Source of the DNA: a virus | Strand: one strand, 5' to 3' | DNA: 64,000 bases | Virus record (IMG/VR): IMGVR_UViG_3300018877_000004 | Span: 5,500-69,499 of that record | Shown here: positions 18,324 through 46,723 of the stretch, piece after piece | How positions within the stretch are numbered: position 1 is the stretch's first letter | Layout: every line of letters starts with the position of its first letter | Notes under the pieces: model-generated | What the model was told of the DNA's origin: nothing | Database searches by the model: none | What the model saw: the letters and a program-made list of their open reading frames with translations, nothing else | Translations under genes and position numbers: made by a program

Positions 18324-19103
18324 CTATCCAACCGTCTCCAGATCCTCCCAAGCCTTAGCGCGACTGAAGTAAAAGCCCTGCGCGTAATCAACCCCGATCG
18401 ACTTGCAGAGTTGGAGCTGAATATCATTCTCAATCCCCTCAGCAACCGTTTTTAGGCTGAAGACTTTCGCCAGCTTGACGAAGCATTCGTAAATCGCGAT
18501 CGCCCCTTCATCCTTTTGATCAGTCGGCATAAAGAAGCGATCGATTTTCAAAAAGCTAATAATGCCTTGCAAGCTGCTTAGCCGTAGCATTGAAGAATGT
18601 TGAGTGCCAAAGTCATCAATGCCCAATTCTGCCCATTCTGAGAGAGGCATAAGCGCCTGCTGAAGGATGGCTAGATCTCTCGTGGCAACCGCATCTTCCG
18701 TGACTTCAAACTTGATTTTTCCAACAATTTGCAGCCTTAAAAGTGACTCTTTAATCTTTAGGTAAAACTCAGGACTTATTAATTGATTGGGCGATAGATT
18801 TAGGGCGATATATCGATCGTTTTGCATCGCACTTGCCTTCTCGCAGGCTTCTTGGAATACCCACTCAAAAAGCGGTTGCTGCCACAAAAAATCGCTTGCC
18901 CGAAAATCGGCAATTCCTGGTAGAAACGCCGCAGGAAATAGCAAGCCTCGATCGGGGTGCTGCCACCTAATCAGCCCCTCGTAGCCGCTTACAGGTAAAT
19001 CTTCGGACTGTAGGGAAACGATCGGCTGATAGTGCAGCCGCAATTCGTTTTGCTCGATCGCTCTCAAGAGTTCGCGGGCACTGGGTTGCTGGGTTGCGGG
19101 CAT
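18324..19103 (-). CDS. Stand-alone EAL-domain c-di-GMP phosphodiesterase
   Basis: YQPIV, EGLIRW, NLSP, FEVTE, IDDFGT, LKIDR, VAEGIE and AQGFYFS: all canonical catalytic positions appear present. Confidence 0.93.
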   Translation of the reverse strand: MPATQQPSARELLRAIEQNELRLHYQPIVSLQSEDLPVSGYEGLIRWQHPDRGLLFPAAFLPGIADFRASDFLWQQPLFEWVFQEACEKASAMQNDRYIALNLSPNQLISPEFYLKIKESLLRLQIVGKIKFEVTEDAVATRDLAILQQALMPLSEWAELGIDDFGTQHSSMLRLSSLQGIISFLKIDRFFMPTDQKDEGAIAIYECFVKLAKVFSLKTVAEGIENDIQLQLCKSIGVDYAQGFYFSRAKAWEDLETVG

Positions 19104-19121
19104 GAGGGGCGATCGATTTCG

Positions 19122-19559
19122 TTATTTAGAATCTTGAGTGTCTATGACAATACGAGTTTTGCCATTGTGACCATGCAAGATTTTGACGGTTTCAAGATTT
19201 GGATACCAAAAGGTTGACTTGATTTCACTTGTCCACTGAAGCACGCAGCCAGCATGCAGAAAATCACAACCAACAGCAACCACACCTGTCCCACTTACAC
19301 CCGTTGCATCATCATCACGCACCAGTTGAAAAGTATAGGTGTGAAGGCCGAGGCAGATTTCTTGGTATGACGGCTCATATTCTTCAATTAATCGGTTTGG
19401 AATCTTCAATTGAATTGCTTCAAAAGATTCAAGACTGGGATAGGTTCCATGTGTTTTATGCTCACCACACCATGCGATCGCTACTTGCCCGTCAGGTAAA
19501 ACACATCCGTCTGCCAGTCTTAATCCTGATGCGCTGTCTACTAATTTAATTATTTTCAT
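19122..19559 (-). CDS. Phage hypothetical protein with an internally duplicated domain
   Basis: Both halves share L(V)..D...G...A.G......W......YP.LE. The second half has GVSGTGVVAVG...HGHNGKT. Confidence 0.7.
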   Translation of the reverse strand: MKIIKLVDSASGLRLADGCVLPDGQVAIAWCGEHKTHGTYPSLESFEAIQLKIPNRLIEEYEPSYQEICLGLHTYTFQLVRDDDATGVSGTGVVAVGCDFLHAGCVLQWTSEIKSTFWYPNLETVKILHGHNGKTRIVIDTQDSK

Positions 19560-19579
19560 TTTCGATCTCCAATTGTTTG

Positions 19580-20245
19580 CTATTTGCTGTTGGCATATCG
19601 ATTGGCTTTTTGTTCTTGCAGCCAGTCGTAGCGCATTTTCACAGTACGCGCCCCTAGCAAGGCGTTGTGGTTGCCGTCTGTTTCGAGGCTAGGAGGTAGG
19701 CGATCGGATGGGATGCCGAGTTCGTCTTCTGCGGTCTGGATGATGTCTCTAGTACGCATAGGAAAGCCTTGCGGCAAGTCCATCATGGTTCCAAAAATTT
19801 GACAAAAGGTGACGTGATCGTATGCGCTCCATTCGCCATAAAATTCAGGGAAATCAACAGTATTGTCTTTATTGGCGATGTACTTTGTTTGCTGCCTGCC
19901 AATAAATCGATCCCATTGTCCTATCCATCCCGATCGAATCCATTGCGCGGTGTAGCGTTCGTAGCCTACAAATCTTGCGATGCCGTCTCTAATTTGCGAT
20001 CGGCTTTTCCATGCTCTCGCTTCTTCCCGTTCACGAGGCGTCATCTCCATCGGGTTGCGCATTTTAGGCGGCAGGCAGGCGATCACATTGTCTTTCACCC
20101 ACTGACTAGCATGGCGTGGGTTGAACTCGGTAGAAACGGCATAGAACTCCCTGCCGTCTTCGCTCACGATTCCAATACTGATAAGTTCTATCGGGTGTTT
20201 GTGGCCACGCTCGATGAATTCCAGGTCTATATAAAATCTAGTCAC
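19580..20245 (-). CDS. Rv2179c-like (DUF5051) DEDDh 3'-5' exonuclease-family protein
   Basis: FYIDLEF, LISIGIV, WVKDNV, AYDHV and HNAL motifs; GTG start near 20245 is likely. Confidence 0.85.
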   Translation of the reverse strand: MTRFYIDLEFIERGHKHPIELISIGIVSEDGREFYAVSTEFNPRHASQWVKDNVIACLPPKMRNPMEMTPREREEARAWKSRSQIRDGIARFVGYERYTAQWIRSGWIGQWDRFIGRQQTKYIANKDNTVDFPEFYGEWSAYDHVTFCQIFGTMMDLPQGFPMRTRDIIQTAEDELGIPSDRLPPSLETDGNHNALLGARTVKMRYDWLQEQKANRYANSK

Positions 20246-20531
20246 TACTGCCCTCGCTACTTTGTTCTTTCGTTTCCAGAAACCCACTTAAGCCTAAACC
20301 AGACGCACCTGCTGCTATTACGCCGATCGCAATGCGTTCCAACATCTGTCGATTCTCAGGGCTTTGGATGGTTTGCTGGCTGAGCAAAAGCCCGATCGCC
20401 AAGCACCCAAACAGGGCAGAGTTGAGTTTTTGGATCAGCCGAATTTGCTTCACTTGCAGGCGATCGCTTACCTCTAGTTTTGCTACAGCGGCTTCTAATT
20501 CTGCAAGGCGTTCAAGGGGTGTATCTGGCAT
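20238..20531 (-). CDS. Small membrane protein (coiled coil + 2 TM); holin candidate
   Basis: Two hydrophobic helices and a charged C-tail; in the same operon as the endolysin. Confidence 0.5.
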   Translation of the reverse strand: MPDTPLERLAELEAAVAKLEVSDRLQVKQIRLIQKLNSALFGCLAIGLLLSQQTIQSPENRQMLERIAIGVIAAGASGLGLSGFLETKEQSSEGSSD

Positions 20532-20543
20532 GGCGATCGCCTC

Positions 20544-20846
20544 CTAAAGATTATCTTCCTGTTGGGAAAAGCTGTGCCAGTCGGGAAGTGCAATCGTTTG
20601 ATCTTTTAGCTCGTGCCAACAGTCGCCTAAAAATTGGATTTTGCCATCTGTCACGAAAGAATGGCAGCGATTGACTGCAAATTGCTCACCTTTTTCATTC
20701 GGATGCCCTGTAAGAACAGAAGGCGTAAAAGTCGGATTTTCAAGACTGCCATTCCAACCCCAAACGCCTTTAGCGATCGCGTGAGCGCATTTGCATCCAG
20801 GACACTGAAACCAAACACGAGCTGCGGTTTCATGAACCTTGTTCAT
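20544..20846 (-). CDS. DUF6527-like Cys/His-rich protein
   Basis: CPGC...H, WGWNG...PTFTPSVL, CHSFVTDGKIQFLGDC.H. Confidence 0.7.
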   Translation of the reverse strand: MNKVHETAARVWFQCPGCKCAHAIAKGVWGWNGSLENPTFTPSVLTGHPNEKGEQFAVNRCHSFVTDGKIQFLGDCWHELKDQTIALPDWHSFSQQEDNL

Positions 20847-20858
20847 AGCGATCGACTC

Positions 20859-21284
20859 CTATGCTAATAACTTGAACAACTGACTCCAATCCTCCCCCCA
20901 ACAAAGAGTTACGAGGTTGCAAACTTGGTGCTGCCACTGGTCGATCGCAATTGCAACCCAGAACGGTGCGGACGGTTTAGAGATGCGCCAATCTTCCCAA
21001 TCTTGATTGTAAAGACGCACCCAGAACGCGCCGAGATTCAGGCGATCGATTACAGTGTGAGTCCCAACAATTACCACTTCTTTCCACACATCCGCCCACT
21101 CTAGCGGGTTCCAAGGATTCCACAAATAGAACAGCACAAACGGGATGGAGTAGATCAGGCTATGCAGAAATGCGATCGCCCAACTTTGGCGCTTATTGTT
21201 AGCCAAGAAGCTGTTTTGCAGTGCGAAATCTCCTGCATTGTGGAGCAGTCTTTCAGTGGCAGCGATCGCGATGATTTTCAGCAT
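20859..21284 (-). CDS. DUF3307-family membrane protein
   Basis: H..GDF.LQ, HSLIY, THTVID and DQWQH motifs. Confidence 0.8.
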   Translation of the reverse strand: MLKIIAIAATERLLHNAGDFALQNSFLANNKRQSWAIAFLHSLIYSIPFVLFYLWNPWNPLEWADVWKEVVIVGTHTVIDRLNLGAFWVRLYNQDWEDWRISKPSAPFWVAIAIDQWQHQVCNLVTLCWGEDWSQLFKLLA

Positions 21285-21286
21285 GG

Positions 21287-21646
21287 TTACTCCGTCTTCT
21301 CGTCAATTCCAACCAAACGCCTGATTTCTGCCATATCTTCGCGCTTAACTGCTTCAGTCAGCATTTGATAGGTTGCTGCATCAAAAACATGCTCACGCTT
21401 TTCGATTTTATTCATGTGCGGAACTCCTACAATTGGCCCTTCGTTGTCAATCGCTTCTTGGCAGGTTTCGGCTTCTTCGATCGTGTCGTGCTGATGACTG
21501 CATAAGCCATGTATTCCACCTCCTTCGTCAGAAGTTGCAACTTTGCGATATTTGCCTGAACCAGTGCCTTCGTTGTTCGCAATTTCTAAAGTTTGTACCC
21601 ACCAAACCATGCTATTTACCTCACTTTGTTGTTGTGTCGCCGCCAT
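21287..21646 (-). CDS. Hypothetical protein
   Basis: Operon context; C.H.H motif. Confidence 0.6.
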   Translation of the reverse strand: MAATQQQSEVNSMVWWVQTLEIANNEGTGSGKYRKVATSDEGGGIHGLCSHQHDTIEEAETCQEAIDNEGPIVGVPHMNKIEKREHVFDAATYQMLTEAVKREDMAEIRRLVGIDEKTE

Positions 21647-21812
21647 ACAAACAGCGATCGTGTACCATCCCCACGTCTAATCCGTTCAGCCTATACGCTG
21701 ACCAATCTTCGCAATACGAACCAGGCGAGACGCATACACGCGATCGACAGAACAAACAGCGGTTGCCGGGAGACTTCGATCGGATGTCCTGCTGAGGCGA
21801 AAAATTAGCCAT
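21621..21812 (-). CDS. Small Zn-finger-like protein
   Basis: CLFC and HDRC motifs; operon context. Confidence 0.5.
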   Translation of the reverse strand: MANFSPQQDIRSKSPGNRCLFCRSRVCVSPGSYCEDWSAYRLNGLDVGMVHDRCLYGGDTTTK

Positions 21813-21817
21813 TGCTT

Positions 21818-22306
21818 CTATCTCATGATCTCCACATCATCGCCCTCACATCCTGCACCAATCGATCGATCGAGCGTCGGCAGAATCACGCTTCCACCTG
21901 TTTTTGTGGTCTGACAGGCAGCTACGGACGTTTGCCCGCTGTCTTGCATCACTACGACGCCACCTGAGTAGTCGCGCAGTTCAGGTGCTTCGGATTCAGC
22001 CGCGATCGTTGTGGTGGTTTCGCTGCTGGTTCCAAGTGTGTATGTGTAATCCTGATCCCGCTCTGGAATGCCGATCTCTAGGTCAGTCCAAGTGCCTGCA
22101 AAAGTAGGTTTCTCGACGCGATAGGCTTGCTGCGCTCGATTGACGCTTCCGACTGTCAATTTTGCAGATGTCTGCTTCGCTTTAGCAGCTTGATTGAGAA
22201 AAGATGGCAGCGCGATCGCTGAAAGGATGCCGATCACAACTATAACGACTAGCAGTTCAATCAAACTGAAGCCTGCTGTATTCTGACGGTTTTGCTGTAT
22301 GTTCAC
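21818..22306 (-). CDS. pilA: Type IV pilin, cyanobacterial PilA1-like
   Basis: Short leader then G|FSLIELLVVIVVIGILSAIALPSFLNQ (class III signal, Glu5), NRAQQAY, and two C-terminal Cys. Confidence 0.9.
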   Translation of the reverse strand: MNIQQNRQNTAGFSLIELLVVIVVIGILSAIALPSFLNQAAKAKQTSAKLTVGSVNRAQQAYRVEKPTFAGTWTDLEIGIPERDQDYTYTLGTSSETTTTIAAESEAPELRDYSGGVVVMQDSGQTSVAACQTTKTGGSVILPTLDRSIGAGCEGDDVEIMR

Positions 22307-23529
22307 GCAGAGACTCCTTGCTTATTGCGAGGTGGTGTTGAAATTGCTTTTTCAGGTGGTATTTTGCGGAAAATTCGCATTTTTAGCGCTTCCACCGAAG
22401 AAGCTTTGCATCGAGGATCTTGTAACCACTCTGCACCCGTTTTTGTTTCGCCCCATGCGGTGATCTTGAAAGCATTTCTTCGGGATTGAGGGCGATTAGG
22501 CTTGCGTTGATTTTTAGGTTGATCAGCTTTGGGAATGAAGCAGCAATTCTCAGGGCAATAATTCCCGTTGACATTTTTTCGCTCGATCGTCAAATCATCT
22601 TGATAGCCGTTTTGAAGTGCCCATTCTCGAAATACTTCAAAGTCTTGCCACTCTGTGCAAACGCCTATTCCCCTCCCTCCATAGTTTTTGTATGCAGGGT
22701 TTTTGGGGTTTTGACATCTCGCTGTCATGCCCTTCCAGGTTGAATAGATACGTTCGTGAGACTTTCCATGTTTGGTAACCAATTCTTTGTGAAAACACCC
22801 ACAAGATACGGTTGCACCTGATTTCAGTGCAGCAGCGCTAACGGTTTTGGTTTTTCCACACTCGCACTGGCAATTCCACTTTGCGCCCTGTCCTCTCCGC
22901 CGCTTGGCAACATCCGCCCGATCGATAACAGTCAAGCGACCAAACACCTGCCCAGTTAGGTCATGAGCCGCATTGGACACGATTTCTTTGTGCAGGCATC
23001 CACAAGACTTTGCATCGCCCTTTACAAGTGCCTGTCGTGACACCGATCGCACTGGAGAACCGCAATCGCATTGGCAAATGTAATTGGGCATCCGCCCGCC
23101 ATTCTTGACTGTCTCAGTGTCATGCCGCAGAACGGTATAGCGTCCAAACCTTTGACCTGACAAGTCCGATCGCCGTTCCTGTGTCTGTCTTTTGTTAAAT
23201 GCTGTCAGCAGGCATCCGCACGATCGCGAATCACCGGATCTAAGTGAAGATCCGAAAACCGATTTTTCCCTGCCGCACTCGCAACGGCAAATCCATTTTG
23301 CAGGCTTGCCCCTTTGGGCGATCTGGTTTGGATCGCGATGCAGAACCGTCCACAATCCAAAAACCTGACCAGACAGATCTACTGCTCTGCCGCAATCCGA
23401 TAAAGTATTCATTAGGCTAGTCCCTTGGTGTTGACAAGTGGCTTGCTTAGAAAGTTGTGGTGTTTCCAGCACCGCAGCTTTCGCCATTTCTACTATTTTA
23501 AACTTTTCCAGGGTTGCTGTCAGTGTCAT
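22303..23529 (-). CDS. HNH homing-endonuclease-like protein with three tandem Cys-rich repeats
   Basis: Three DL(S/T)GQ.FG..TV...C.C.CG......SCGC repeats, then W..M..RC...YGGRGI.VC..W...TIER.NVNGNY.PENC. Confidence 0.85.
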   Translation of the reverse strand: MTLTATLEKFKIVEMAKAAVLETPQLSKQATCQHQGTSLMNTLSDCGRAVDLSGQVFGLWTVLHRDPNQIAQRGKPAKWICRCECGREKSVFGSSLRSGDSRSCGCLLTAFNKRQTQERRSDLSGQRFGRYTVLRHDTETVKNGGRMPNYICQCDCGSPVRSVSRQALVKGDAKSCGCLHKEIVSNAAHDLTGQVFGRLTVIDRADVAKRRRGQGAKWNCQCECGKTKTVSAAALKSGATVSCGCFHKELVTKHGKSHERIYSTWKGMTARCQNPKNPAYKNYGGRGIGVCTEWQDFEVFREWALQNGYQDDLTIERKNVNGNYCPENCCFIPKADQPKNQRKPNRPQSRRNAFKITAWGETKTGAEWLQDPRCKASSVEALKMRIFRKIPPEKAISTPPRNKQGVSA

Positions 23530-23696
23530 TCTTCTGCCAACTCCCACCCTGCCTGCTCTAATCGTTCCTGCGTCCCGACAGAGATTCCCGGTGCATCTCG
23601 ATGGTGAACATGGACACTCTGCCCGTTGATCCGCGCGATCGTCCCTCTGTCACCCGTTCGCGAGTTTTTTAGGTGATCGCCCTTGCGCCAGTTCAT
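23526..23696 (-). CDS. Small beta-barrel-like protein, 56 aa (MNWRKGDHLKN...)
   Basis: ATGA-coupled to both neighbours; paralogue of 23693..23860. Confidence 0.65.
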   Translation of the reverse strand: MNWRKGDHLKNSRTGDRGTIARINGQSVHVHHRDAPGISVGTQERLEQAGWELAEE

Positions 23697-23860
23697 ACCC
23701 TTTGCCACCCCATCGACTGCAAGATTTCCTGCCGTCCCGACACTACGCCACCCTGATCAACTGCCAACACAGGCGATGACCCCAGCTCTAGCCGCACCGT
23801 TGCGAGTTGGTCGGTATTGGTGTTGCGGACGCGATCGCCGTCCTGCCAAAGCAGAGTCAT
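23693..23860 (-). CDS. Small protein, 55 aa (MTLLWQDGDRVRNTNT...GWQRV); not in the ORF track
   Basis: Starts 1 nt after the endolysin stop; ATGA overlap with the next gene; similar to that gene. Confidence 0.65.
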   Translation of the reverse strand: MTLLWQDGDRVRNTNTDQLATVRLELGSSPVLAVDQGGVVSGRQEILQSMGWQRV

Positions 23861-23861
23861 T

Positions 23862-24608
23862 TTACGCATATCGAAAAATCACCCGCTTCTTTTCTGGTCT
23901 GATATCGATGTGCAAGAAACTTGGCTGAGCTAGCCCGATCCCTTTAATGGCTGAGGTGCTTTTGACAACCTCCAGCAAGCGCTTAAAATCGCCATTTAGC
24001 GGGCGCAAATCCAAAGCGCGACCATATTTGTGCTGCGATCGAGATGCCCCAATGTCTAAGGTGTATGGCCTGTAGGCAGAGTTAATCGCGATCGGACTGC
24101 CGAACTTCTGCCGGATCGTCCGGTACGCCGCAGCGAGTGCCAGCATGTTTTTTACAAGCCGCTCTTCGCTGCCAAAAGTTGCAGACCCGATCGGCATTCG
24201 AGTAAAGCCGCGCAGCATCTCACCCCAGGTCAGGTAAGCGCCATCAGCGATCCACTCGTTCTCATAAATTTCGCCGACTACTGGGAGAATCGCCCGCTTG
24301 CCCGATCGAGTGCCCGCAATTGGATTGGCTTTAGCTGTCAACACCTGCTGCTGCTCACTGACCTTGTGAGGCGCGTCAAGCTGCTGCAATAGTGTGATCG
24401 ACGTGCCGCCAATTAGCCCAGGATCGGACAAAGAGGCGTCACGCTTGAAATTAGCAAAAGCGGTACGAGTACGGTTGCCGATCAAGCCGTCTGCATCGGT
24501 AGGGCGATCGAGGTAGCCCCCTCTTAGGAGTTGCTGCTGCACCCACAACAGATCGACATTGCTGAGGCGATCGATCGGGCAAGCCGTGTTTAGGGTTGGG
24601 GTGACCAT
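23862..24608 (-). CDS. Endolysin: peptidoglycan-binding domain + peptidase M15
   Basis: DGLIGNRTRTA (PG-binding); INSAYR, SQHKYGRALD and FLHIDIR (M15 Zn ligands). Confidence 0.88.
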   Translation of the reverse strand: MVTPTLNTACPIDRLSNVDLLWVQQQLLRGGYLDRPTDADGLIGNRTRTAFANFKRDASLSDPGLIGGTSITLLQQLDAPHKVSEQQQVLTAKANPIAGTRSGKRAILPVVGEIYENEWIADGAYLTWGEMLRGFTRMPIGSATFGSEERLVKNMLALAAAYRTIRQKFGSPIAINSAYRPYTLDIGASRSQHKYGRALDLRPLNGDFKRLLEVVKSTSAIKGIGLAQPSFLHIDIRPEKKRVIFRYA

Positions 24609-24634
24609 GTTGCCTCAGAATTCTTGCTGACAGA

Positions 24635-24642
24635 ATTCCCCC
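24635..24642 (-). promoter_or_regulatory. Late promoter motif variant GGGGGAAT before the endolysin operon
   Basis: 27 nt from the endolysin start at 24608. Confidence 0.5.
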
Positions 24643-24673
24643 TCGCTACACTGAAGCAAATCGAGGTTGACTT

Positions 24674-25687
24674 ATGGCTGTTTCGGGTCGCAATACAACA
24701 AGAGCGCTTCACTACATTCTGGATGGTCGCACACCCATTCCGTGCCCTACTAATGATTGGGGCGTTTACACGGTTGCAAAAACTCAGGTTGGCGATATTG
24801 AAGTATCGACCGCTTTTTTTGGCGTTGATCGTCAATTTTCGGATGAGTCGGACGCCGCGCCTCTATTGTTTGAAACAATGATTTTTGGTGGTGATAATGA
24901 TGGGGATATGTGGCTAGACTCCACATGGGAGCAAGCCGAATTGCGACACCGAGAGATTGTGGCGTCGATCGATCCTGCTGCAACGGTTGTAGTTGCGCCA
25001 CCAATGCCTCTTGCTGTTGATTTTCAGCCGCAACACTGGGAAATTTGGCGGCGTGAAAGACGGGCGAGTGTGCGATGTGGCGATCGAGTGATCAACTTTT
25101 ATTTTTCAACTTTTATTGTTAGTAGTGAAGTTCTCGATGTTGATGTGTCTGCTGGCTATGTCAGCCCCTATGATCATATTGAATTGACGATCTATACCCC
25201 GAATGGCTCTTGCTTCACGCCGCGAGGCTTGATAGTAGAGGGATTGGAGATTGCGTGTCAGCTCTCGTCCCAACGGTTTGAAGTAAATGATTTGGCTCGC
25301 ACAGAGATTCGCCTAACTCCCGATCGAGGATCGTTTGCATGGGAAGTTGAGCCGCGAGTCTGTCGCTTCACCGTTACGCCACAGACGCGAACCCCGCAGT
25401 TGGACTCTTGCTTTGTTGATACGATTTTTCACGCCTCTGAGGTTGCTACTTTTTCAGCCAATTGTCGCTGCTTTAATCCCGCCGATGCTCTCAGCCCTGC
25501 CGACATCGACGAAGTTCATTCGTTTCTCGCGTCCGAGTTCGGCCTAAGTGTTGTTGCATCCGATCGCCCCAAAGCCTGCCAAGGATGCCAGAACTATCAC
25601 GGCGAGATTTACAATGGCAATCGCCTAATCTGCGGCATTCATCCCTATGGCTGGAATGATGGCGACGAATGCCCCGATCGCGCCTAA
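24674..25687 (+). CDS. Multi-domain hypothetical protein (moron-like, opposite strand)
   Basis: N-terminal VSTAF.G.D...PLLFETMIFGG phage motif; C-terminal CQGCQNYHG...CGIHPYG...CPD Cys/His motif. Confidence 0.65.
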   Translation: MAVSGRNTTRALHYILDGRTPIPCPTNDWGVYTVAKTQVGDIEVSTAFFGVDRQFSDESDAAPLLFETMIFGGDNDGDMWLDSTWEQAELRHREIVASIDPAATVVVAPPMPLAVDFQPQHWEIWRRERRASVRCGDRVINFYFSTFIVSSEVLDVDVSAGYVSPYDHIELTIYTPNGSCFTPRGLIVEGLEIACQLSSQRFEVNDLARTEIRLTPDRGSFAWEVEPRVCRFTVTPQTRTPQLDSCFVDTIFHASEVATFSANCRCFNPADALSPADIDEVHSFLASEFGLSVVASDRPKACQGCQNYHGEIYNGNRLICGIHPYGWNDGDECPDRA

Positions 25688-25962: not shown

Positions 25963-27303
25963 TTACGGCACTCCCAAAGCATTGAGCAAGCGAAAATATC
26001 GATAGGGCGATCGCCTTTCAATAAAGTCCACGCCACCCGGCAAGGCGACGTTGGCAAAAATCATATCTGTCCGTGCAGACTGAATTTGATCGGTTGGGGT
26101 AGCTGTTAGCAGTTGCCCGATCGTTCCCGGCGCGTTGAAAGTATTAAACGGATAGAACAAGTTGCTGAGGTAGGTTTCGAGCGTGAAACCCCAAACACCA
26201 AAAATTGGATGATCTGCAATTACATCTGTGCGCTGAGTCAGTTGCTTGCGCTGTCGAAAGATCGTATTGGGCTGACTCACTACCGTTTCGACGTTGGCAA
26301 CAGGTGCAGTTTCGATTGACAAGCTTGACCCGCCAAACAGACCCGATAACGCCGGCTGATAACCTGCGCCTTGATATATAACCCGTAGTCGCGTCAGTTG
26401 GTTTGATACTCCCACAGGATTGATAAACGGATAGAAGCCCGCCATATTTGCCCGCGCCCAACTCTGCGGCTGTACAGCCTCATGAGCCGTTAAAGTGCCG
26501 AAGGTTATAAGCGAACTTGTGATCAGGTGTTGACTCCAAGCGGCAAGAGCGGGAGGGTACTCGATCGCATTGGGAAACAGCCCTAATACGATTGCATTGC
26601 CCGCCTCGCGATTTATGTTTGAGTAATCGCCAAACGGCCATGTTCTGTTTTCCGTGAGGTTTCCTAAAAACTGAGTATGCGAGGCAATCGGCTGCCCGTT
26701 ACTCGCATTGAAAATCCACGTATGCAGGCGAACGGGTGTTGTAGTGGTTGTCTCGTCGCTTCCTAGTCCTAAAGGCACTATGGCAGCGGTCGTCACTTGC
26801 ACAATTACGGCGCGACGAGGATGATCGACAATTGAGAAAAATATCGGGATTCGCGTATTCAATCGGCTGTCAATATTCAGCAGTTCGATCGTTCGGTTGT
26901 TGATTCGCAGATATAAGATCGTCTGCGGCATCGTCGTCACTGGCGTACTTGTGCCACCAAACGACTCTTGCAGTGCTTCTAACAGATAAGCAACGGTTGA
27001 ACTCACGCGCTCTTGTGTCCTCCGTTCTTCTCTCACCACTCTGGGAGCGCCGTCCAATACTCCGCCCGTACTGATCACACTTGACCCCAACGCGATCGCT
27101 CCGTTGGTAATTGTTGGCACGTACACCATGCCGCCATCCATCGAAGCTCTCGCACCGCGATCGGCATCGTAGCTAACATATCGCAGTGGGGGCGATGTGC
27201 TGTCGATCTCTTCTTGACGGGCGATCGACGCCGCTAAGCTGCGGTGTCGGACTAGCTGCTGCCGAAAGATTCCGAGTTCTCTAGCGGTGTACTCCTCAGT
27301 CAT
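25963..27303 (-). CDS. Putative tail / receptor-binding protein
   Basis: Distal position in the tail operon; conserved N-terminal module and beta-rich C-terminus. Confidence 0.55.
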   Translation of the reverse strand: MTEEYTARELGIFRQQLVRHRSLAASIARQEEIDSTSPPLRYVSYDADRGARASMDGGMVYVPTITNGAIALGSSVISTGGVLDGAPRVVREERRTQERVSSTVAYLLEALQESFGGTSTPVTTMPQTILYLRINNRTIELLNIDSRLNTRIPIFFSIVDHPRRAVIVQVTTAAIVPLGLGSDETTTTTPVRLHTWIFNASNGQPIASHTQFLGNLTENRTWPFGDYSNINREAGNAIVLGLFPNAIEYPPALAAWSQHLITSSLITFGTLTAHEAVQPQSWARANMAGFYPFINPVGVSNQLTRLRVIYQGAGYQPALSGLFGGSSLSIETAPVANVETVVSQPNTIFRQRKQLTQRTDVIADHPIFGVWGFTLETYLSNLFYPFNTFNAPGTIGQLLTATPTDQIQSARTDMIFANVALPGGVDFIERRSPYRYFRLLNALGVP

Positions 27304-28001: not shown

Positions 28002-28030
28002 GCGATCGAAGATTAAAGTTCGATCGCAGA

Positions 28031-28038
28031 ATTCCTAC
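28031..28038 (-). promoter_or_regulatory. Late promoter motif GTAGGAAT
   Basis: 30 nt from the 28001 start; same motif and spacing as the other copies. Confidence 0.7.
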
Positions 28039-28041
28039 AAG

Positions 28042-31210: not shown

Positions 31211-31239
31211 TAGGCAGCGCTAGATAAGCTGCCGTGAGA

Positions 31240-31247
31240 ATTCCTAC
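31240..31247 (-). promoter_or_regulatory. Late promoter motif GTAGGAAT
   Basis: 30 nt from the 31210 start. Confidence 0.7.
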
Positions 31248-37664: not shown

Positions 37665-37693
37665 AAAGTTTGCTTAAAGACTTCGTGGCTAGA

Positions 37694-37701
37694 ATTCCTA
37701 C
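37694..37701 (-). promoter_or_regulatory. Late promoter motif GTAGGAAT
   Basis: 30 nt from the tape measure start at 37664. Confidence 0.7.
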
Positions 37702-39631: not shown

Positions 39632-39633
39632 CC

Positions 39634-40332: not shown

Positions 40333-40365
40333 TGCAGAGTCTTTAGAATTAGTTCTGCGGGCAGT

Positions 40366-40373
40366 GTTCCTAT
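40366..40373 (-). promoter_or_regulatory. Late promoter motif ATAGGAAC
   Basis: 34 nt from the tail tube start. Confidence 0.55.
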
Positions 40374-40810: not shown

Positions 40811-40994
40811 GCCTCATAATAATTAGGGATATTGGGCGATCGTCCGCACTGTACTCGATGATTTCTGCTCTGGTTGCCGTCGCCTTGGTAGCAGGTAGCC
40901 CGTCTGCGCCTTCATACCGGACGATCGCATACTTCCCGCCATTGGGTAGCGGATCTTTTTCGGTTGCTTCAATCCGTTCGGTGGTGTCATCCAT
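40749..40994 (-). CDS. Small acidic protein directly after MuF; candidate immunity protein
   Basis: Overlaps the MuF stop; 81 aa; PNGGKYAIVRY...ATRAEIIEY. Confidence 0.55.
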   Translation of the reverse strand: MDDTTERIEATEKDPLPNGGKYAIVRYEGADGLPATKATATRAEIIEYSADDRPISLIIMRLGDGRGGSDRTEDSDRDSAE

Positions 40995-43900
40995 TCGGGT
41001 TGCCTGCGTTCTCGATGTCTTTCAGAATTCGTCTGCGTCTTGCTTCCAGTCGATCGACTGCAATCCCTCGCTTTTGTCCGCGTTCTCTTGCTTCAATTCG
41101 CTTTTGAATTTCTAAATTAACTTCTGATAGTTCACCCTGAAGTGCTGCTAATCGTGCGATTTGGGCTTGCGCCCGATCGACCTCACCCTGTCGTCTGCGC
41201 AGGCGATCGTCTTCTTCTGCCGTCACTCTTGCCGCAACGTCAATCTGAGGGATCTGCAAGAATTCTCGCAACTGCTGATTGTATTGCTCTAGCTGCGATC
41301 GCAAGTCTGTCACGCTCAGGGCGCGACCATCCACCTCATAAATTAGCGCTGCCCCTTGATCGCGTTCACTACGCTGCTGGAGTGCCGTGGCAATGGCAAG
41401 CGCATCTTCAATCTCACGAGCGATCGCTGCTTTGGTCTGTGCTGTTTCCTCAGCAAAGCCATCACGAGCGCGTCGGTACAGTTCAGACTGATCAATGATT
41501 TGGCGCGGGTCAACATTCTCATCAGTTAGAAGCAGGTTGGCAAAGTCTTGGTTGAACTCTGCCAAATCTTCGATCAACTGATTGCCCGATCGCGCTACAT
41601 CGATCGCTCGAATCCGCTCTGGCGTCTTCAAAAGCTGTTGAATCTGGCGATCGCTTAACCTGCCCTCATCCGCCAACTCATCGCGCAACTGCTGCCACTG
41701 AGCGATTTGGGCAGCGGCTTGAGCGGTCGTAGCCTGTGCAAGCTGATCCGGGTAGTCAAGCTGCTTTTGAATCGACTGGATGCGCCCGTTTACCTGTCCG
41801 ACTAGCTTTGCTACTTCGTTGGCGGCAGACTGTAAGCGCTCGTTTGGCGTCTTCCCCGGCTGGCGCTCCAAGACGATCGCCAAATCTGAAGGCATCGCCC
41901 CTTCTTCCCAGTTGCGACTATCCAGCAGCCACGCGACTGATCCGGGACGGAGAGAGGCAAGGATCTGTAGGTTGGTGCGAACGGTTTCGACATCGCGGCT
42001 AACGATCGCTTGCAGGTTGTTAATCGCTGATTGCCGCTGAGTGCTGTAGTTGTCGGATAGCTGCTGTGTGGTGTTAGCACGAACCGCAAGCTGTGAACTC
42101 AATTCAGCGCGTAACTGTCGATACTGCTCAACCCGTTGCGGTAGCTTGCCTTGAGCGTTGCGGGTGCGCCTAATTGCACTGTATCGATCGCGCTGTTCTG
42201 TGGTTAAATCCTGAGTTTTGGTAGGCAGTCCATTCAGGCGTTGCAGCAGATCGTCTAGTTTGTCACGACTAGAATCGAGTCGCGCTGTCAAAATCTCCAG
42301 TGATTCTGCCGCCTGCGATACTTGTCGAATGCGCGGTTCTAAATCTTGGCGGTGCAAGTCTGTCACGCCCACGCCTGTAGACTGTGAGTTCACTGCTGCC
42401 CGCAATCGCTGCAAATCTCGCAACGCCTGCGATTTTTCACTCGATCGCGGCAAGTCCAGTAACTCTTTTTCTGCGGCTTCTAAATCCTGCTTTAAGCCTG
42501 TGATCGATCGTTCTACATCCCGCCGTTCTCCCTCTGTCTGCAAGGATTCGCGGCGAGTGCTGAGGTCGTTTAATGTCCGCTGTAATTCTGCGCTGTTGGT
42601 TCGCAGCTTCATTGCGGTCTGCTCAATGTTCTCGATCGCCTGTAGCTGCTTTGACGCTTGCTTGAGTTGCGCCTTAGCCGCTCGAATCTGCTGCGGTACG
42701 GTCGAGAAGTAGGGCGGATTGAGTGGATTAAGTAGCTGTGCCGCCCGCTGCTCGATCGCTTCGATTTGCGCTTCGACTCGGTTGATCGCCTCCTCTTGGA
42801 TGCGAATTTCCTGAGACGCTTGTTCCTGCTGCACCGCTGTGCGTGGCAAATCCACTCGATCGAGTGCCTGCTGAATTTTCTTGGTGCTGCGTTGCGCTGT
42901 CGCGAGTTCGTTAGCCTGCTCTCGCTGGGTGCGAATACGATCGGCAAGTGTGGCGTTGGCACTGCGCAAGTTTTCAACAATTTGCGGGCTGCGTGTATCC
43001 GGTTGTTGTGGCTCAGCGGATTGAGGTTGAAGGACACCTTTGCGAGGATGGCGATAGTCAAAGATGCGGGCGATCGCTTCGTAGCGGGCGGGCGCAAATT
43101 TCTTTAGATAGTCAGGATTTAAGAAGAACTCTTTCACCGATTCAGCAAAGTCGCGATCGGGTCGGTTCTGATACGCCATGCGCGTCTCTTGCATGGCACG
43201 GGCGTATTCAGAGCGCTCAGGTGGCGTCAGTTGTCCAAACTGCTGATACGCCCTCAGATAGCCAGCTTGCAGCAGCAGATCGTCAATCTTGGCACGTCCT
43301 CCGTAGAGCACGATCGCCCCTTCGTCGAAGGTGACCATGCCATTGACTTTAGGCGTGTTCAGCTTCAGCTTTTTGCGCCAATACTGCTCTGAAGCGTTGC
43401 GCTGTCGAGTGATATAAATGTCGCCACTGCCAAGCGCATTCTCAGGCAAGTCAAGTTCTGCCACCTTGCGCAATAGGTCAAGGGTGGGGCTGTTTTCTCC
43501 TAGTTTGGGGACGTACCAATCGACGCCCTTAAATCGAAAACGATCGAACTGTTCAGCGTCTTTTGCGCCTGGCGGTGTTGCTTCTGCTGTCTCGATCGTG
43601 CCTTGCAACTGCTCGAAAACTGCCTTGCGATAGGCTGCACCTTTCGCCTGTGCAGGCATATCCTGTCGCTTGATTTCATCGATCGCTTGCCGCAGTCGAA
43701 ACTCTGCCAGTCGTGAGGCTCCCCGATCAATCGATCGGGCTTGTTTGTAGAGGTTCCGGGCGATCTTCGTCTCTAGTGCCTGTCGTTCAACGGGTGTCAA
43801 TGGCGCAAGCTCTACGCCTGCTGGCAGCGCCAATCGCGGTAGCTCACCCCGCAGTAGTCCTTTAACGGGTTGTGCTTCAGGTAGTGCCAGCAATGGCTCA

Positions 43901-45939
43901 TATCCTGGTAGTGCTTTTGGTTCTGCTAGCCCCGGCAAGGCTTTCGGATCAGCGCGTCCGGGCAGTAATCCGGCAGCGTTACGGGCAGCAAGAACCTTTT
44001 GCGCGATCGCAGGGGGAAGCAATCGAATCTCGTCAGCACTCAGCAACAGCAGTTGCGGGATCAGTTCGTCAATCTGCCGTGCTAGTACATCGTCGTCAAT
44101 GGTTCGCTCGGTCTTGACAGGTTCAGCCGCTTCGCTCGATCGTTCTTTGCGTGGAATGTCTGTCTTCAGAAATTCTTTGATCGTGGCGACGAATTCCTCA
44201 TCAGGCAAGTACTGCTCTAATGAGTGGTTTTTGACATTGGCAAGTGGAACGCGATTGAGGGCGCTAAGCTGTGCCCACGGATCACCTGTGCCAGCGATCG
44301 TGATGCCCTGCTCTGGCGACATTTCATTGAAGCCGAAATAAGGCGACCCGATCGCAATCACCTTGGCAGTGATGCCCATCTCCTTAAGGATCTCTGCTGC
44401 CTCGAATGCCGTTGCACCGCCCGCGCTGTAGCCGATGATGTTGATCGGCTTGTCAGGATACTTTTGATGAAAAGCATAGGCTTGCGCTGCAACCCTCACG
44501 GATGCCATGTTGCGCCCTTCAACGATCGCAGTCGAAAGGAACTTCGAGAAGATCTGGCTTACCTTGCGAGGTGTGGGCGCACCGCCCGGATCTTCTACAT
44601 CGAATTCGGGAGTGCGTACCCCAATGACGCGATGCTTGGGCAATACGACTTTTTGAAAGTAGTTCGCTAGATAAATGCCTTGCCCGCCCTGCTCACCTGA
44701 AAAACCACCCACGACAAACGTCACCTGCTCATCGTTTTCGCTGGGGTCAGCTTCTACCCCTTTGCGAAACTTTTGCGACAGTTCTTGCGCCATTGTTGCC
44801 GATCGCTTAAACCCTTTGCGATAGCGCGATCGGGCGAGATAGTAGCTGCCGACTGTCGTACCTGCGACCGCTGCCCCAACCGTGAGCGCAATTAGTAGAT
44901 CGTTGTTGACCTGCTCTTGTGGAGTCTGCCGACGCGATCGATCTGTGAGCAGTTGCGCTGCTAGTTTTCCGACTGCCCATTGTTCGCCCTTAACCTGCAC
45001 TGAGCGATCGAGGTAGCCATCGACAGGCGTCCAAACTGGCTTAGGTGGCGAGATATTTGCAGCACGTTCAAAGGGCGCAACATTGCCAGCGGATTGATCT
45101 GTTGTTGTCGCTTTGACTTTTTCAGCGTGTTGCTTAACCCACTCGTTCGCTTTAGGGTCAGACGCCTCCTGTTCAAGGAAGTATGGCGAATTAAAACAAC
45201 GATCGCGCGGATGAATTACAGCAGGCGCAGCATCCACTGGGTAAACGTTGCCAGCACGATCGGCGCAGAATTTGCAGACCCTACGATCTTGCGTGGCGAT
45301 TCTTTGGACATATTGAATCCCGTATTCCTTGTATCTCGATCGAGTGGCTGAGTCTTGCGCCGAAATGATCTCAGTTCGTGCGATCGTCTCTGCTTTGCCT
45401 TTTGTTACACCTAGTCGCTGCCGCAGAAATCCAGCAACTTTTTGCGCCCCCTGCCCTTGAATTAGACCCTGAGTGATAATTACTGACGCTTCTTCACGGA
45501 AGGTCTGATCGTGCTTCTTGAGGCGATCTACTGCATCCCTAGCCGCAAATGCAGCAGCTTCGATCGGTACAGTTGCAGTTGCCTTGATAAAGCTGTCGCC
45601 CTGCTCAAGTGCTACCAACTCATCGCCTAGCGTCGTCCCCTCTTTCGAGGCAGTTGATAGCAACTTTTCATAGCGATCGCGCAACTCCTGCTCACGATCG
45701 GGGTCAATTAATATCAGTTGCGCTTGCAGATCGTTGACCAGAAGAACGCCTCGCTGAGTCGCTAGCAAGTCTGGTTTTGATTTTGCGGTGTAGTTCGGAT
45801 ACCTGCGCAATAAATCAGCTTCGAGCCGTCGATAGGAAGCGTCTAGGGCTGCATAAAGTCGATCGACTTCCGCATCTTCCATGTCTTGAAGAGTGCGATC
45901 GGTTCTTTCGATTAATTGTGCTGCCGCTTCGCCGCTCAC
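40987..45939 (-). CDS. Giant MuF / SPP1 gp7-like minor head protein with alpha/beta-hydrolase, zincin-like and coiled-coil extensions
   Basis: AETIARTE...D.RVCKFC...HPRDRC (MuF); TM segment; INIIGYSAGG nucleophile elbow; DFAESV; long coiled coil. Confidence 0.85.
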   Translation of the reverse strand: MSGEAAAQLIERTDRTLQDMEDAEVDRLYAALDASYRRLEADLLRRYPNYTAKSKPDLLATQRGVLLVNDLQAQLILIDPDREQELRDRYEKLLSTASKEGTTLGDELVALEQGDSFIKATATVPIEAAAFAARDAVDRLKKHDQTFREEASVIITQGLIQGQGAQKVAGFLRQRLGVTKGKAETIARTEIISAQDSATRSRYKEYGIQYVQRIATQDRRVCKFCADRAGNVYPVDAAPAVIHPRDRCFNSPYFLEQEASDPKANEWVKQHAEKVKATTTDQSAGNVAPFERAANISPPKPVWTPVDGYLDRSVQVKGEQWAVGKLAAQLLTDRSRRQTPQEQVNNDLLIALTVGAAVAGTTVGSYYLARSRYRKGFKRSATMAQELSQKFRKGVEADPSENDEQVTFVVGGFSGEQGGQGIYLANYFQKVVLPKHRVIGVRTPEFDVEDPGGAPTPRKVSQIFSKFLSTAIVEGRNMASVRVAAQAYAFHQKYPDKPINIIGYSAGGATAFEAAEILKEMGITAKVIAIGSPYFGFNEMSPEQGITIAGTGDPWAQLSALNRVPLANVKNHSLEQYLPDEEFVATIKEFLKTDIPRKERSSEAAEPVKTERTIDDDVLARQIDELIPQLLLLSADEIRLLPPAIAQKVLAARNAAGLLPGRADPKALPGLAEPKALPGYEPLLALPEAQPVKGLLRGELPRLALPAGVELAPLTPVERQALETKIARNLYKQARSIDRGASRLAEFRLRQAIDEIKRQDMPAQAKGAAYRKAVFEQLQGTIETAEATPPGAKDAEQFDRFRFKGVDWYVPKLGENSPTLDLLRKVAELDLPENALGSGDIYITRQRNASEQYWRKKLKLNTPKVNGMVTFDEGAIVLYGGRAKIDDLLLQAGYLRAYQQFGQLTPPERSEYARAMQETRMAYQNRPDRDFAESVKEFFLNPDYLKKFAPARYEAIARIFDYRHPRKGVLQPQSAEPQQPDTRSPQIVENLRSANATLADRIRTQREQANELATAQRSTKKIQQALDRVDLPRTAVQQEQASQEIRIQEEAINRVEAQIEAIEQRAAQLLNPLNPPYFSTVPQQIRAAKAQLKQASKQLQAIENIEQTAMKLRTNSAELQRTLNDLSTRRESLQTEGERRDVERSITGLKQDLEAAEKELLDLPRSSEKSQALRDLQRLRAAVNSQSTGVGVTDLHRQDLEPRIRQVSQAAESLEILTARLDSSRDKLDDLLQRLNGLPTKTQDLTTEQRDRYSAIRRTRNAQGKLPQRVEQYRQLRAELSSQLAVRANTTQQLSDNYSTQRQSAINNLQAIVSRDVETVRTNLQILASLRPGSVAWLLDSRNWEEGAMPSDLAIVLERQPGKTPNERLQSAANEVAKLVGQVNGRIQSIQKQLDYPDQLAQATTAQAAAQIAQWQQLRDELADEGRLSDRQIQQLLKTPERIRAIDVARSGNQLIEDLAEFNQDFANLLLTDENVDPRQIIDQSELYRRARDGFAEETAQTKAAIAREIEDALAIATALQQRSERDQGAALIYEVDGRALSVTDLRSQLEQYNQQLREFLQIPQIDVAARVTAEEDDRLRRRQGEVDRAQAQIARLAALQGELSEVNLEIQKRIEARERGQKRGIAVDRLEARRRRILKDIENAGNPNG

Positions 45940-46015
45940 TCTTTACCCTAAAAACGCTAAACGAATGGACATCTTGAGTACAAAACGCTACATTTAGCGA
46001 AACTCATTAGTACTT

Positions 46016-46723
46016 TTGATCGTGCCCTCAGTCGCAATTGCCGCCGCTTCGATGCGATCTGCTTCCTCTGTTCGGTCAAGCATTCCTATTGCAAAACTGC
46101 TGAATCGTCACCGCCCGCTTGCATTGAAAATTGCGAGGCGAATGCAGTCGCTTTGTGGTGAACCACTAGAAGACCTAGAGCAACTTGCACTAGTTGGATT
46201 GACCAAAGCCCTTAAGGGATACGATCCGACTTTAGGGCTTAAATTTAGTTCGTTTGCTGTGCCCAGCATTCGCGGAGAAATCATGCATTTTCTGCGCGAT
46301 CATGGGGAGTTAATGAAAGTGCCGCGCCGTGCCCGTGAAACTGCGGCAAGCGTAAAAAAACAGCATCGCCAACTTGTTTCGCAGGGGCTTGATTTTCCGA
46401 TCGTTAAAGTTGCGGCGGCGATGGGGATTAAAGAGGAAGTGTGGAAGTGGCTAGAGGAGGCAACCGCTAGCAAGTCGATCGCCCCACTTGATGAGGAGTG
46501 GCAGCAGTCCGCAGAACCGCAATTTTCAGAAGATCCTGAGCATCAACCCTTGCAAGAAGCGATCGCACGCCTTCCTTTTTTGCAGTACGAAGTCACGATC
46601 GATCGCTATTACTTGGGAATGTCTGATCAGCAGATAGCAACCCACCATGACTTGAGCTTGTCCGAATTAAAGTGCTGTGAGTCTGCCGCCCTAAACGCCC
46701 TCAGAACTGCCCTGGAGTCCTAA
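46016..46723 (+). CDS. Alternative sigma factor, SigF/SigB/FliA-like (cyanobacterial group 3); start may be ATG 46052
   Basis: EPLEDLEQLALVGL.KA...YDP..G.KFSSFAVPSIRGEIMHFLRDH...KVPRR; region 4 HTH. Confidence 0.9.
   Translation: MIVPSVAIAAASMRSASSVRSSIPIAKLLNRHRPLALKIARRMQSLCGEPLEDLEQLALVGLTKALKGYDPTLGLKFSSFAVPSIRGEIMHFLRDHGELMKVPRRARETAASVKKQHRQLVSQGLDFPIVKVAAAMGIKEEVWKWLEEATASKSIAPLDEEWQQSAEPQFSEDPEHQPLQEAIARLPFLQYEVTIDRYYLGMSDQQIATHHDLSLSELKCCESAALNALRTALES

Follow-up and report, generated by a model that had tools for sequence, protein, structure and literature searches.

A type IV pilin paired with a stand-alone EAL protein in a temperate cyanophage, and a separate sigma factor with a candidate late promoter

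Pilin and EAL genes beside the lysis and tail genes

The window analysed here is the 64,000-nucleotide stretch formed by bases 5500-69499 of the linear 69,499-bp virus record IMGVR_UViG_3300018877_000004, which is estimated to be 88% complete. Three of its genes are the subject of this report: a type IV pilin, a stand-alone EAL protein (predicted to be a phosphodiesterase of the second messenger cyclic di-GMP, c-di-GMP) and a group-3-like sigma factor (Table 1). The phage under study is labelled G000; other G and L labels denote the relatives and loci compared with it. A first-pass annotation had joined the three genes into a phage-borne kit for the control of host pili and motility. Its description of the genes themselves held. 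All three were found intact and open, the pilin is complete (both pilin profiles score above their cut-offs and the cleavage motif is kept), and the EAL protein is an open frame with a bare EAL domain. The gap-free minus-strand operon that it saw starting at the endolysin was also recovered, as the listed open reading frames (ORFs) from 24608 to 18324 overlap or lie at most 20 nt apart. The assignment to a cyanophage agrees with the phage structural genes, the virus record and an excess of the octamer GCGATCGC. This octamer is present in 69 copies against 2.16 expected, a number reached in none of 100 shuffles, and its enrichment is known as the HIP1 signature of many cyanobacteria.

The phage pilin has a leader of 11-12 residues and the cleavage motif G/FSLIE (the slash marks the cut), which reads ...NTAG/FSLIELLVV in the protein. 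In an alignment of 13 pilins (A1), all 29 invariant columns are kept by the phage protein, including G-1, F1 and E5. G12, F13 and E17 are invariant in A1, as is the C-terminal cysteine pair C131/C153 (13/13 sequences). The NCBIfam PilA equivalogs of other phyla all scored far below their cut-offs. A predicted AlphaFold2 model (pLDDT 91.1) consists of a helix at residues 15-65 followed by strands, and the best Foldseek matches of this predicted fold were Thermus PilA4 (9e-4) and the Neisseria pilin, both of which are major pilins. A role as a part of the virion was considered and rejected, as the protein carries a membrane-targeting class III leader and the E5 residue required for filament assembly. 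Comparison with the allele of the relative G002 gave a dN/dS of 0.15 over 162 codons (0.09-0.17 in neighbouring genes), and the pilin is under purifying selection. The dS of 1.09 is more than twice that of the neighbours (0.41-0.47), which suggests an older or exchanged allele.

The nearest cellular homologues of the pilin were found at 41 cyanobacterial loci, with 50-60% identity. These loci contain a GT41 glycosyltransferase cluster (32/41), a methyltransferase (17/41) and a thioredoxin-reductase-like gene (11/41), and a tandem second pilin is common. Because of the GT41 cluster, the tandem pilins and the conserved chromosomal neighbours, they are regarded as a housekeeping major-pilin arrangement and not as prophages. 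By homology, the phage protein is a diverged relative of the host chromosomal major pilin. The leader MKxExKAKFL, a trait of the host orthologues and not of pilins generally, is present in 35/41 host pilins vs 0/8 phage pilins. No match to the pilin was obtained at 1e-3 when 50,697 phage records were searched with tblastn.

A tree of 44 pilins was built, from which five host ORFs without the trimming motif were dropped and the frame-broken copy of G001 was left out. The pilins of G000 and G002 form a clade (100/100) on a stem of 1.08 substitutions per site, where end branches across the whole tree have a median of 0.22. This clade falls within a group, not resolved further, of Nostocales, Phormidium tenue, Elainellales and Drouetiella. 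The pilin of a third phage, the provirus G393, is found elsewhere on a very long branch, and 0/200 bootstrap trees unite the three phage pilins. The phage lineage therefore took up pilins at least twice, or once very long ago.

The EAL domain fills residues 10-248 of the 259-residue EAL protein and covers 234 of 236 profile positions, so no sensor domain is present. The protein aligns over its whole length to solved phosphodiesterases, among them MucR (5m1t, 3.7e-30), RocR and DosP. In an alignment of 12 EAL sequences (A2), 22/22 invariant columns are kept by the phage protein. None of the metal- and substrate-binding residues (E42 of the EXL motif, R46, N102, E133, E136, D163, D164, K186, E222, E225 and Q242) is missing or varies within A2, and they align with those of MucR and CC3396-type phosphodiesterases. 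As far as can be judged from these residues, the protein looks catalytically competent. Its cellular relatives are at most 38% identical and no cyanobacterium is among the best 80; the gene is therefore not a recent capture from the host. Searched with tblastn against the same phage records, the EAL protein matched 61 records, most of which are short pieces or bacterial contigs deposited as phage. A metagenome scan gave 203 relatives, of which the best 80 were all at most 37% identical, and no further members of the cassette were found in it.

Three unrelated cyanophage backbones encode a pilin and a stand-alone EAL protein no more than about 3 kb apart, in most cases next to tail-fibre genes. 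The first backbone is that of G000, G001 and G002, in which the EAL gene lies near the pilin in the same synteny. G001 (50 kb, 70% complete) has a different tail module and no sigma gene but the same stretch of HNH, pilin, DUF3307 and EAL genes. G002 (94.7 kb) has structural genes of 59-99% identity, an intact pilin (80-82%), the sigma factor (97-99%) and an EAL gene (44-53%) split between frames. The second backbone, G396, encodes a Pilin_GH pilin and a stand-alone EAL protein 0.9 kb apart on opposite strands, adjoining collagen-like tail genes. In the third, L354 (identical to L355 over 20,114 bp in two public contigs), the EAL gene begins at the end of tail protein J and a pilin-like gene follows 1.4 kb on, on the same strand. 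The EAL proteins of the three backbones share 22-29% identity, and the G396 and L354 loci have no other gene in common.

Viral loci with pilin or EAL were counted. In a collection of 2.9 million, 197 contigs were positive for the EAL pattern. Among the best 80 of 107 pilin-bearing viral loci, EAL was present in 4/7 HIP1-rich loci and in 0/73 of the others, and it was present in 0/80 terminase-anchored control loci (884 kb in total). No pilin was found in the best 80 of the 197 EAL-bearing viral loci. In all, pilins were seen in eight HIP1-rich viral contigs of at least five lineages and in a ninth contig that is not HIP1-rich; of six lineages, three (the G000 group, G396 and L354) have both pilin and EAL. 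The pairing is real and recurrent. It was not found in the literature searched; the list of PilA-like phage proteins in Table S3 of PMC12952977 might include a cyanophage. Phage-borne pilins have already been published; their pairing with EAL appears to be new.

Two side observations concern the relatives. At the G396 locus (L348:2372-4984), an IS605-type TnpB transposase and a small resolvase adjoin the EAL-pilin pair, which hints that the pair might move as a unit. In G002 (L134-L138), homologues of tail genes are found at both ends (about 2-15 kb and 81-93 kb); the contig may be a concatemer, an assembly in permuted order or a chimera made from two related phages.

The position of the pilin near tail genes extends to phages without EAL. 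The tail genes at 25963-31210, which end about 3.6 kb from the pilin in G000, have homologues on both sides of the pilin in G393, where it is embedded among tail-fibre genes, and ahead of the pilin in G397. In G397, which gave no sigma match, the pilin lies 2 kb after a homologue of 29363-31210 and resembles the G393 pilin (by-eye comparison). G393 and G397 were both classed as proviruses.

The stretch that follows the tail-fibre and lysis genes is a mosaic cargo zone. This was seen in contigs of four biocrust runs from two studies, 80-100% alike to the stretch, since bridging contigs drop single ORFs: variants were found without 19122-19559, without 21287-21646, without 20546-21694 or without 24674-25687. 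The contigs of the second study include pieces 83-86% alike to the EAL gene. Between relatives that share 82-97% identity in the flanking genes, DUF3307 and EAL reach only 33-48%. The HNH homing-endonuclease-like gene shares 4 nt with the start of the pilin gene. G000 and G001 both carry it (82% identity), and G002 lacks it at this position. Many metagenome contigs diverge exactly at 23526, where this gene begins, with loose ends in three runs, and the gene is therefore a recent insertion. A separate 337-aa ORF on the plus strand (24674-25687), between the endolysin and the tail genes, matched no family and also behaves as an insertion, as contigs of runs X2 and X4 join 24654 to 25685 without it.

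Table 1. Features of the window. Genes marked "added" were not mentioned by the first-pass annotation.
Feature	Coordinates	Strand	Evidence or remark
Second sigma factor, group 1/2-like, 291 aa, early region	778-1653	+	Sigma70_r2 1.3e-16; added
Large serine recombinase (integrase)	14281-15702	-	Resolvase 8.5e-19 and Zn_ribbon_recom; added
Stand-alone EAL protein, 259 aa, predicted c-di-GMP phosphodiesterase	18324-19103	-	Pfam EAL 3.4e-47, 161.2 bits (cut-off 31.3)
Accessory ORFs between pilin and EAL (six)	19122-21646	-	
Accessory ORF	19122-19559	-	phrog_7499
Accessory ORF	19580-20287	-	RNase H / Rv2179c-like exonuclease
Accessory ORF	20238-20531	-	
Accessory ORF	20544-20846	-	phrog_3362
Accessory ORF	20859-21284	-	DUF3307 membrane protein
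Accessory ORF	21287-21646	-	
Type IV pilin, 162 aa	21818-22306	-	Pilin_GH 80.2 bits (cut-off 28.9; 1.9e-22); N_methyl 32.8 bits (cut-off 21.2)
HNH homing-endonuclease-like gene, between lysis genes and pilin	22303-23547	-	phrog_374 3.1e-92; added
Lysis region: M15 endolysin (23862-24608) and two small ORFs	23526-24608	-	Peptidase_M15_3 3.6e-12
Distal tail and tail-fibre genes	25963-31210	-	phrog tail-fibre and baseplate matches for 27303-28001
Late promoter-like motif GTAGGAATTCT	28028-28038, 31237-31247, 37691-37701	-	Three identical copies
Group-3-like sigma factor, 235 aa	46016-46723	+	Sigma70_r2 50 bits (cut-off 24); true start possibly ATG 46052
Sigma partner gene, 284 aa	46726-47580	+	No known family
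Terminase large subunit	49153-50541		
Portal	50580-52157		
Major capsid protein	53007-53978		
Variants of GTAGGAATTCT	50546-50556, 52914-52924, 55094-55104	+	

Beyond the genes listed in Table 1, the structural set includes a major tail protein, a 1729-aa tape measure protein and a 1650-aa MuF-like protein, and helicase and primase genes are also encoded in the window. From its gene content the phage is judged to be a siphovirus, and a temperate one because of the large serine recombinase. The host is best explained as a filamentous, HIP1-rich cyanobacterium. The GC content of the window is about 51%, and that of the P. tenue loci is 51-54%. Most of the stretch was covered by a single run only, labelled as a biocrust metagenome. 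Nostoc, in which the highest pilin identity was found, was considered as the host and set aside, since the pilin tree fails to separate Nostocales, Phormidium tenue, Elainellales and Drouetiella. A megablast of 22 kb against the 50,697 phage records gave no match. Likewise, the major capsid protein was searched for in 389 genomes belonging to the same family as a Nostoc genome and was not found, a weak negative as the query has no known match there.

A sigma factor and a promoter-like motif of late genes

The first-pass annotation described the third gene as a SigF-like sigma factor of group 3. In part this stands: the nearest cellular relatives belong to group 3 and the best models are those of SigB/F/G (NCBIfam) and of cyanobacterial SigF (PRK07408). 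The scores, however, are far below the cut-offs (107.6 vs 234.35 bits and 103.2 vs 261, respectively), where host paralogues score 380-421. Region 4 reached 16.2 bits against a Pfam cut-off of 24.1, and region 3 had no match. In three Nostocales genomes the best matches were two PRK07408-positive group-3 paralogues, with 40% (residues 27-158) and 30-38% identity. The relatives of the sigma factor are 223-241 aa long, which suggests the later start at ATG 46052. In a large protein collection, the sigma factor falls into a set of 223-258-aa proteins without a region 3 match, some of them from Crinalium and Phormidium tenue. Among the relatives, the phage-type sigmas P0004-P0022 lack PF04539 and the cellular-type sigmas P0023-P0030 carry it. 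With tblastn, sigmas related to those of host group 3 were found in 195 phage records, including phages of Bacillus, Microcystis and Cylindrospermopsis; a pattern search of genome contigs confirmed none.

The sigma gene travels with a partner. The partner gene directly follows the sigma gene in G002 (98% identity), G003 (40%), G393 (28%) and a prophage of Phormidium tenue FACHB-886 (32%). Family searches with it gave no match, and a protein atlas gave only unnamed cyanobacterial clusters; it is a candidate co-factor or anti-sigma factor. In G393, a provirus of a Lyngbya-like genome with a terminase 57% identical to that of G000, sigma and partner are directly upstream of the terminase region. 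The P. tenue prophage encodes the sigma factor (49%) and the partner together with portal, tape-measure and tail homologues, and neither pilin nor EAL was found in the 80 kb examined. In an Oculatella prophage, a homologue of the sigma gene lies about 3 kb from the terminase gene. G003 also has the sigma gene, and its contig ends before the expected place of the pilin. From this synteny, sigma and partner are a core regulator of the phage, set apart from the pilin and EAL cassette.

A promoter-like motif, GTAGGAATTCT, was found in front of late genes. Its three identical copies all lie between genes, in coding-strand orientation, and each is followed after exactly 26 nt by the start of a tail gene; for the copy at 28028 this gene is 27303-28001. 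One- or two-mismatch variants precede four further genes by 23-30 nt, namely those of the portal, the major tail protein and the endolysin and the gene at 55132, and another variant lies about 80 nt before the capsid gene. The endolysin start is preceded by two copies with two mismatches, at 8 and 23 nt. G002 has five exact copies; the distance to a start is 26 nt for four of them and 23 nt for the fifth. In G003 there are two exact intergenic copies whose spacing is unreadable from its ORF calls. Variants are also present in G393 (one, 25 nt before the giant MuF-like gene), the P. tenue prophage (two, at 23 and 25 nt) and the Oculatella prophage (two). When AGGAANNCT was scanned for at 18-31 nt before ORF starts, it was found in 6/6 sigma-bearing relatives vs 0/4 sigma-less contigs, with about 20 kb covered in three of the latter four. 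As a separate observation, the giant 1650-aa protein of G000 (40987-45939, minus strand) combines a Mu F-like head domain with a thioesterase or alpha-beta hydrolase region, and its homologues in G393 and the P. tenue prophage (1884 and 2825 aa) each have the late motif in front.

Moreover, the window encodes a second sigma factor in its early region, which is RpoD/RpoS/MzaA-like at about 1e-28 (below the cut-offs) and absent from G002 and G003. G002 has the motif without this second sigma, so the motif goes with the 46016-type sigma. The presence of two sigmas suggests a two-step transcription cascade. The sigma factor at 46016 is most likely a late-gene specificity factor of the phage, which would direct RNA polymerase to extended -10-type late promoters formed by GTAGGAATTCT 26 nt before late starts.

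The first-pass annotation had the sigma factor drive pilin and motility genes. The motif is placed before phage late genes and is absent before the phage pilin and EAL genes, and GGAATTC was found in 0/33 host pilA upstream regions, which does not bear this out. The host pilA genes have an element of their own. In the 250 nt upstream of pilA at loci L003-L043, an A/T-rich segment is followed by GGTGATA-N17-GGGTAAGTTA, about 50 nt before the start, and the core GGTAAGTT is present in 25/33 of these regions. This element is probably a SigF-type pilA promoter. In the phage, GGGTAAGTTA is not enriched (19 matches vs 24.3 expected) and is absent before the pilin.

A proposed role for the pilin and EAL pair

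It is proposed that pilin and EAL are accessory genes of one cassette, which would reshape the pilus and the c-di-GMP signalling of the host and probably mask the phage receptor, while the sigma factor acts separately on late genes. The pilin would have been captured from a host chromosomal locus of pilA type and would then have diverged, keeping what is needed for processing and polymerisation. The host prepilin peptidase would process it, and the product would be built into the host type IV pilus. With the surface of the pilus changed, phages that use it as a receptor would fail to bind. The result would be superinfection exclusion, and progeny would be spared adsorption to infected filaments. 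The EAL protein would lower c-di-GMP, which controls pilus-dependent functions and minor-pilin expression in Synechocystis (10.64898/2026.03.27.713163). Since c-di-GMP governs pilus behaviour and minor-pilin choice, both genes would act on the same organelle. Cyanophages have been described to bind along cyanobacterial pili (10.1101/2025.09.20.677514). In Pseudomonas, the prophage protein FimU becomes part of the pilus and prevents adsorption (Sztanko et al., Cell Rep 2026, PMC12952977). The position of the pilin by tail genes, taken together with the FimU, cyanophage-pilus and c-di-GMP papers, therefore favours an exclusion cassette, to which we give about an even chance.

Several points weigh against this proposal. 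Less c-di-GMP is generally expected to favour piliation and motility, and would thus expose more of a pilus receptor and not hide it. The loop 6 motif DFG(T/A)GYSS may be important in EAL proteins, and the phage protein reads DFGTQHSS in place of the usual DFGTGYSS (A2 consensus DDFGTGYSS; one cellular member has GHSS). Similarly, the EAL protein of L354 has KIN for KID and that of G396 has EYVE for EGxE. Of G000, G001 and G002, only G000 has an open EAL frame: that of G001 has an in-frame stop and a frameshift, and that of G002 has a frameshift and a detached N-terminal piece. Frame breaks are also found in the pilin and a lysis ORF of G001, and the broken EAL frames may be assembly errors or gene decay. 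G001, G002 and G003 share one common public-name prefix and are probably not independent samples. Half of the pilin lineages (G393/G397, G394 and G395) are without EAL, and three HIP1-rich loci among the best 80 of the 197 EAL-bearing viral loci have no pilin within 10 kb. That pilin and EAL are neighbours could simply mean that both landed in a shared cargo hot spot close to tail genes. The cassette is not set apart from the late genes by any promoter or terminator signal, as a scan of 16500-25500 for sigma-70 promoters and terminators gave chance levels (8 vs 8.5 and 9 vs 9.6). Finally, the link between the sigma factor and the motif is correlative.

The alternative that fares best is lysogenic conversion, in which the phage pilin forms or dominates the pili, the EAL protein lowers c-di-GMP and lysogens become more motile or dispersive, with no exclusion role. 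It fits a temperate phage and the general rule that low c-di-GMP favours motility. The run that covers the stretch best is labelled as a biocrust metagenome, a setting in which gliding matters. The pilins of the archaeal provirus SNJ2 offer a precedent, as they become the dominant filaments and promote motility and biofilm (PMC12426801). Conversion leaves unexplained why the pilin is in or beside the tail-fibre genes in G393, G397, G396 and L354, and why the phage pilins have long branches. It remains credible, as a tentative reading.

The kit of the first-pass annotation fares less well. Its pilin, its EAL protein and its idea that the pilus is swapped or jammed fit a recurrent two-gene module; the sigma factor as a third member does not. 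As a coordinated kit, a SigF/SigJ-like sigma would turn on host pilus and motility genes and so reprogram gliding or piliation. This gains some plausibility from the two Nostocales paralogues that are its nearest cellular relatives (40% over residues 27-158), from the presence of all three genes in G000 and G002, and from the promoter of SigJ, a sigma factor that directly regulates about 100 promoters of Nostoc punctiforme (PMC6495340). The late motif AGGAATTCT agrees with the SigJ J-Box GGGaAtacT of the same paper at 7/9 positions including the A and T of the -10 hexamer (by-eye). Against it, the sigma factor is conserved beside packaging genes in relatives without EAL (G393) or without both pilin and EAL (the P. 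tenue prophage, over the 80 kb), and the pilin- and EAL-bearing contigs G001, G396 and G399 have no sigma gene. A survey of co-occurrence, which the first-pass annotation had itself named as a check, found all three genes together only in G000 and its close relative G002, which largely goes against the idea. The absence of the motif before pilin, EAL and host pilA genes, the lack of enrichment of GGGTAAGTTA and its core GGTAAGTT in the phage, and SigF scores far below family cut-offs without a region 3 match point the same way. The three-part kit is not supported, and such coordination is unlikely. Equally doubtful is its fullest form, in which the kit of G000 is real. Given J-Box-like late promoters, the sigma would then also fire host J-Box motility promoters, the host machine would assemble the phage pilin and the EAL protein would lift the c-di-GMP brake. 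Late infection or induction would in that case re-dress and mobilise the filament, and cyanophages would broadly carry a pilin and EAL receptor-remodelling cassette co-inherited with tail fibres.

Pilin and EAL might also be uncoupled passengers of one cargo hot spot after the tail and lysis genes, with an EAL gene that may be decaying. The high mosaicism of the stretch, the low identity of DUF3307 and EAL between relatives with similar flanks (33-48% vs 82-97%), the broken EAL frames of G001 and G002 and the half of pilin lineages without EAL all speak for this. It is made improbable by the three unrelated backbones that carry both genes within about 3 kb with EAL proteins only 22-29% identical, by the rarity of EAL elsewhere in viral loci (0/80 controls; 197 of 2.9 million contigs) and by the purifying selection on the pilin. 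Lastly, the EAL protein could be an anti-defence enzyme that destroys a cyclic-dinucleotide immune signal, with the pilin independent of it; phage enzymes that break down cyclic-nucleotide immune signals are known, and the absence of close cellular homologues (at most 38%, best 80 without a cyanobacterium) fits a long residence in phages, but EAL domains act specifically on c-di-GMP, a molecule not typical of defence signalling, and the repeated adjacency to a pilin is left unexplained, so this reading is very unlikely.

With the present finding, phage pilus subunits, lately shown to act as anti-phage defence in Pseudomonas, extend to cyanobacterial phages. If the pair works together, it would be a compact case in which a virus rewrites its own receptor organelle in structure as well as in signalling, in organisms that depend ecologically on pilus-driven gliding. 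Apart from this, the sigma factor and the late motif are a concrete candidate pairing for a cyanobacterial prophage lineage. One member resides in the culturable Phormidium tenue FACHB-886, so this pairing is testable at the bench.

Comparison with known systems

The closest parallel is found in the phages with FimU and PilA proteins (PMC12952977). PilA-like proteins about 50% identical to host PilA were reported there in Xylella prophages and four phage groups. As in the present phage, a temperate phage carries a copy of a host type IV pilus subunit (50-60% identity here). For PilA, pilus incorporation and an adsorption block are proposed in that paper, and the protein is tied to the diversity of tail proteins. 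The host here is a cyanobacterium, a word absent from that paper. In contrast to the FimU and PilA phages, the present pilin is of the major-pilin type with Pilin_GH, is repeatedly paired with EAL and in some relatives lies within the tail-fibre cluster.

A temperate virus that encodes pilins is also known in the archaeal genus Natrinema, where the pilins of the provirus SNJ2 use the host machinery and alter motility and biofilm (Xiang et al., Cell Rep 2025, PMC12426801). The viral pili of SNJ2 also matter for infection by another virus. Unlike the phage described here, SNJ2 is archaeal and has tandem pilins, its viral pili create a receptor and do not mask one, and no second-messenger enzyme is involved.

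By analogy, the pilin beside host-recognition genes would resemble a phage receptor-blocking gene next to a receptor-binding gene. Such arrangements include llp by pb5 in phage T5 and cor in the tail-fibre region of phi80 and N15. In these, as may be the case here, an exclusion gene is co-inherited with a tail gene that recognises the same receptor. Unlike the pilin, llp and cor encode lipoproteins or small proteins that block FhuA and are not homologues of a receptor subunit.

The sigma factor has its counterpart in the SigF/SigG-like sigmas of Bacillus phages, whose relatives likewise include developmental group-3 sigmas of the host (Schwartz et al., mSphere 2022, PMC9429907). In that study, only the phage homologue near sigF (62% identity) reproduced the host regulon and divergent ones (24-32%) had little effect. 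Unlike those sigmas, the one described here is about 40% identical over regions 2-3 only and tracks a phage-specific motif. The motif itself can be compared with the J-Box GGGaAtacT of Nostoc punctiforme SigJ, a promoter of the extended -10 type that can do without its -35 (Gonzalez et al., mSphere 2019, PMC6495340). Both have a G-rich extension followed by a hexamer of A-N3-T type, no conserved -35 and a short distance to the gene. In contrast to the J-Box, AGGAATTCT has A for the first of three Gs called "absolutely conserved" in that paper and precedes phage structural genes. Lastly, the EAL protein resembles the phage peptides that bind YfiN, which are also phage products acting on the host c-di-GMP network (PMC8085984). 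The Pseudomonas case involves a peptide that inhibits or modulates a cyclase, whereas a complete EAL enzyme is predicted in the cyanophage.

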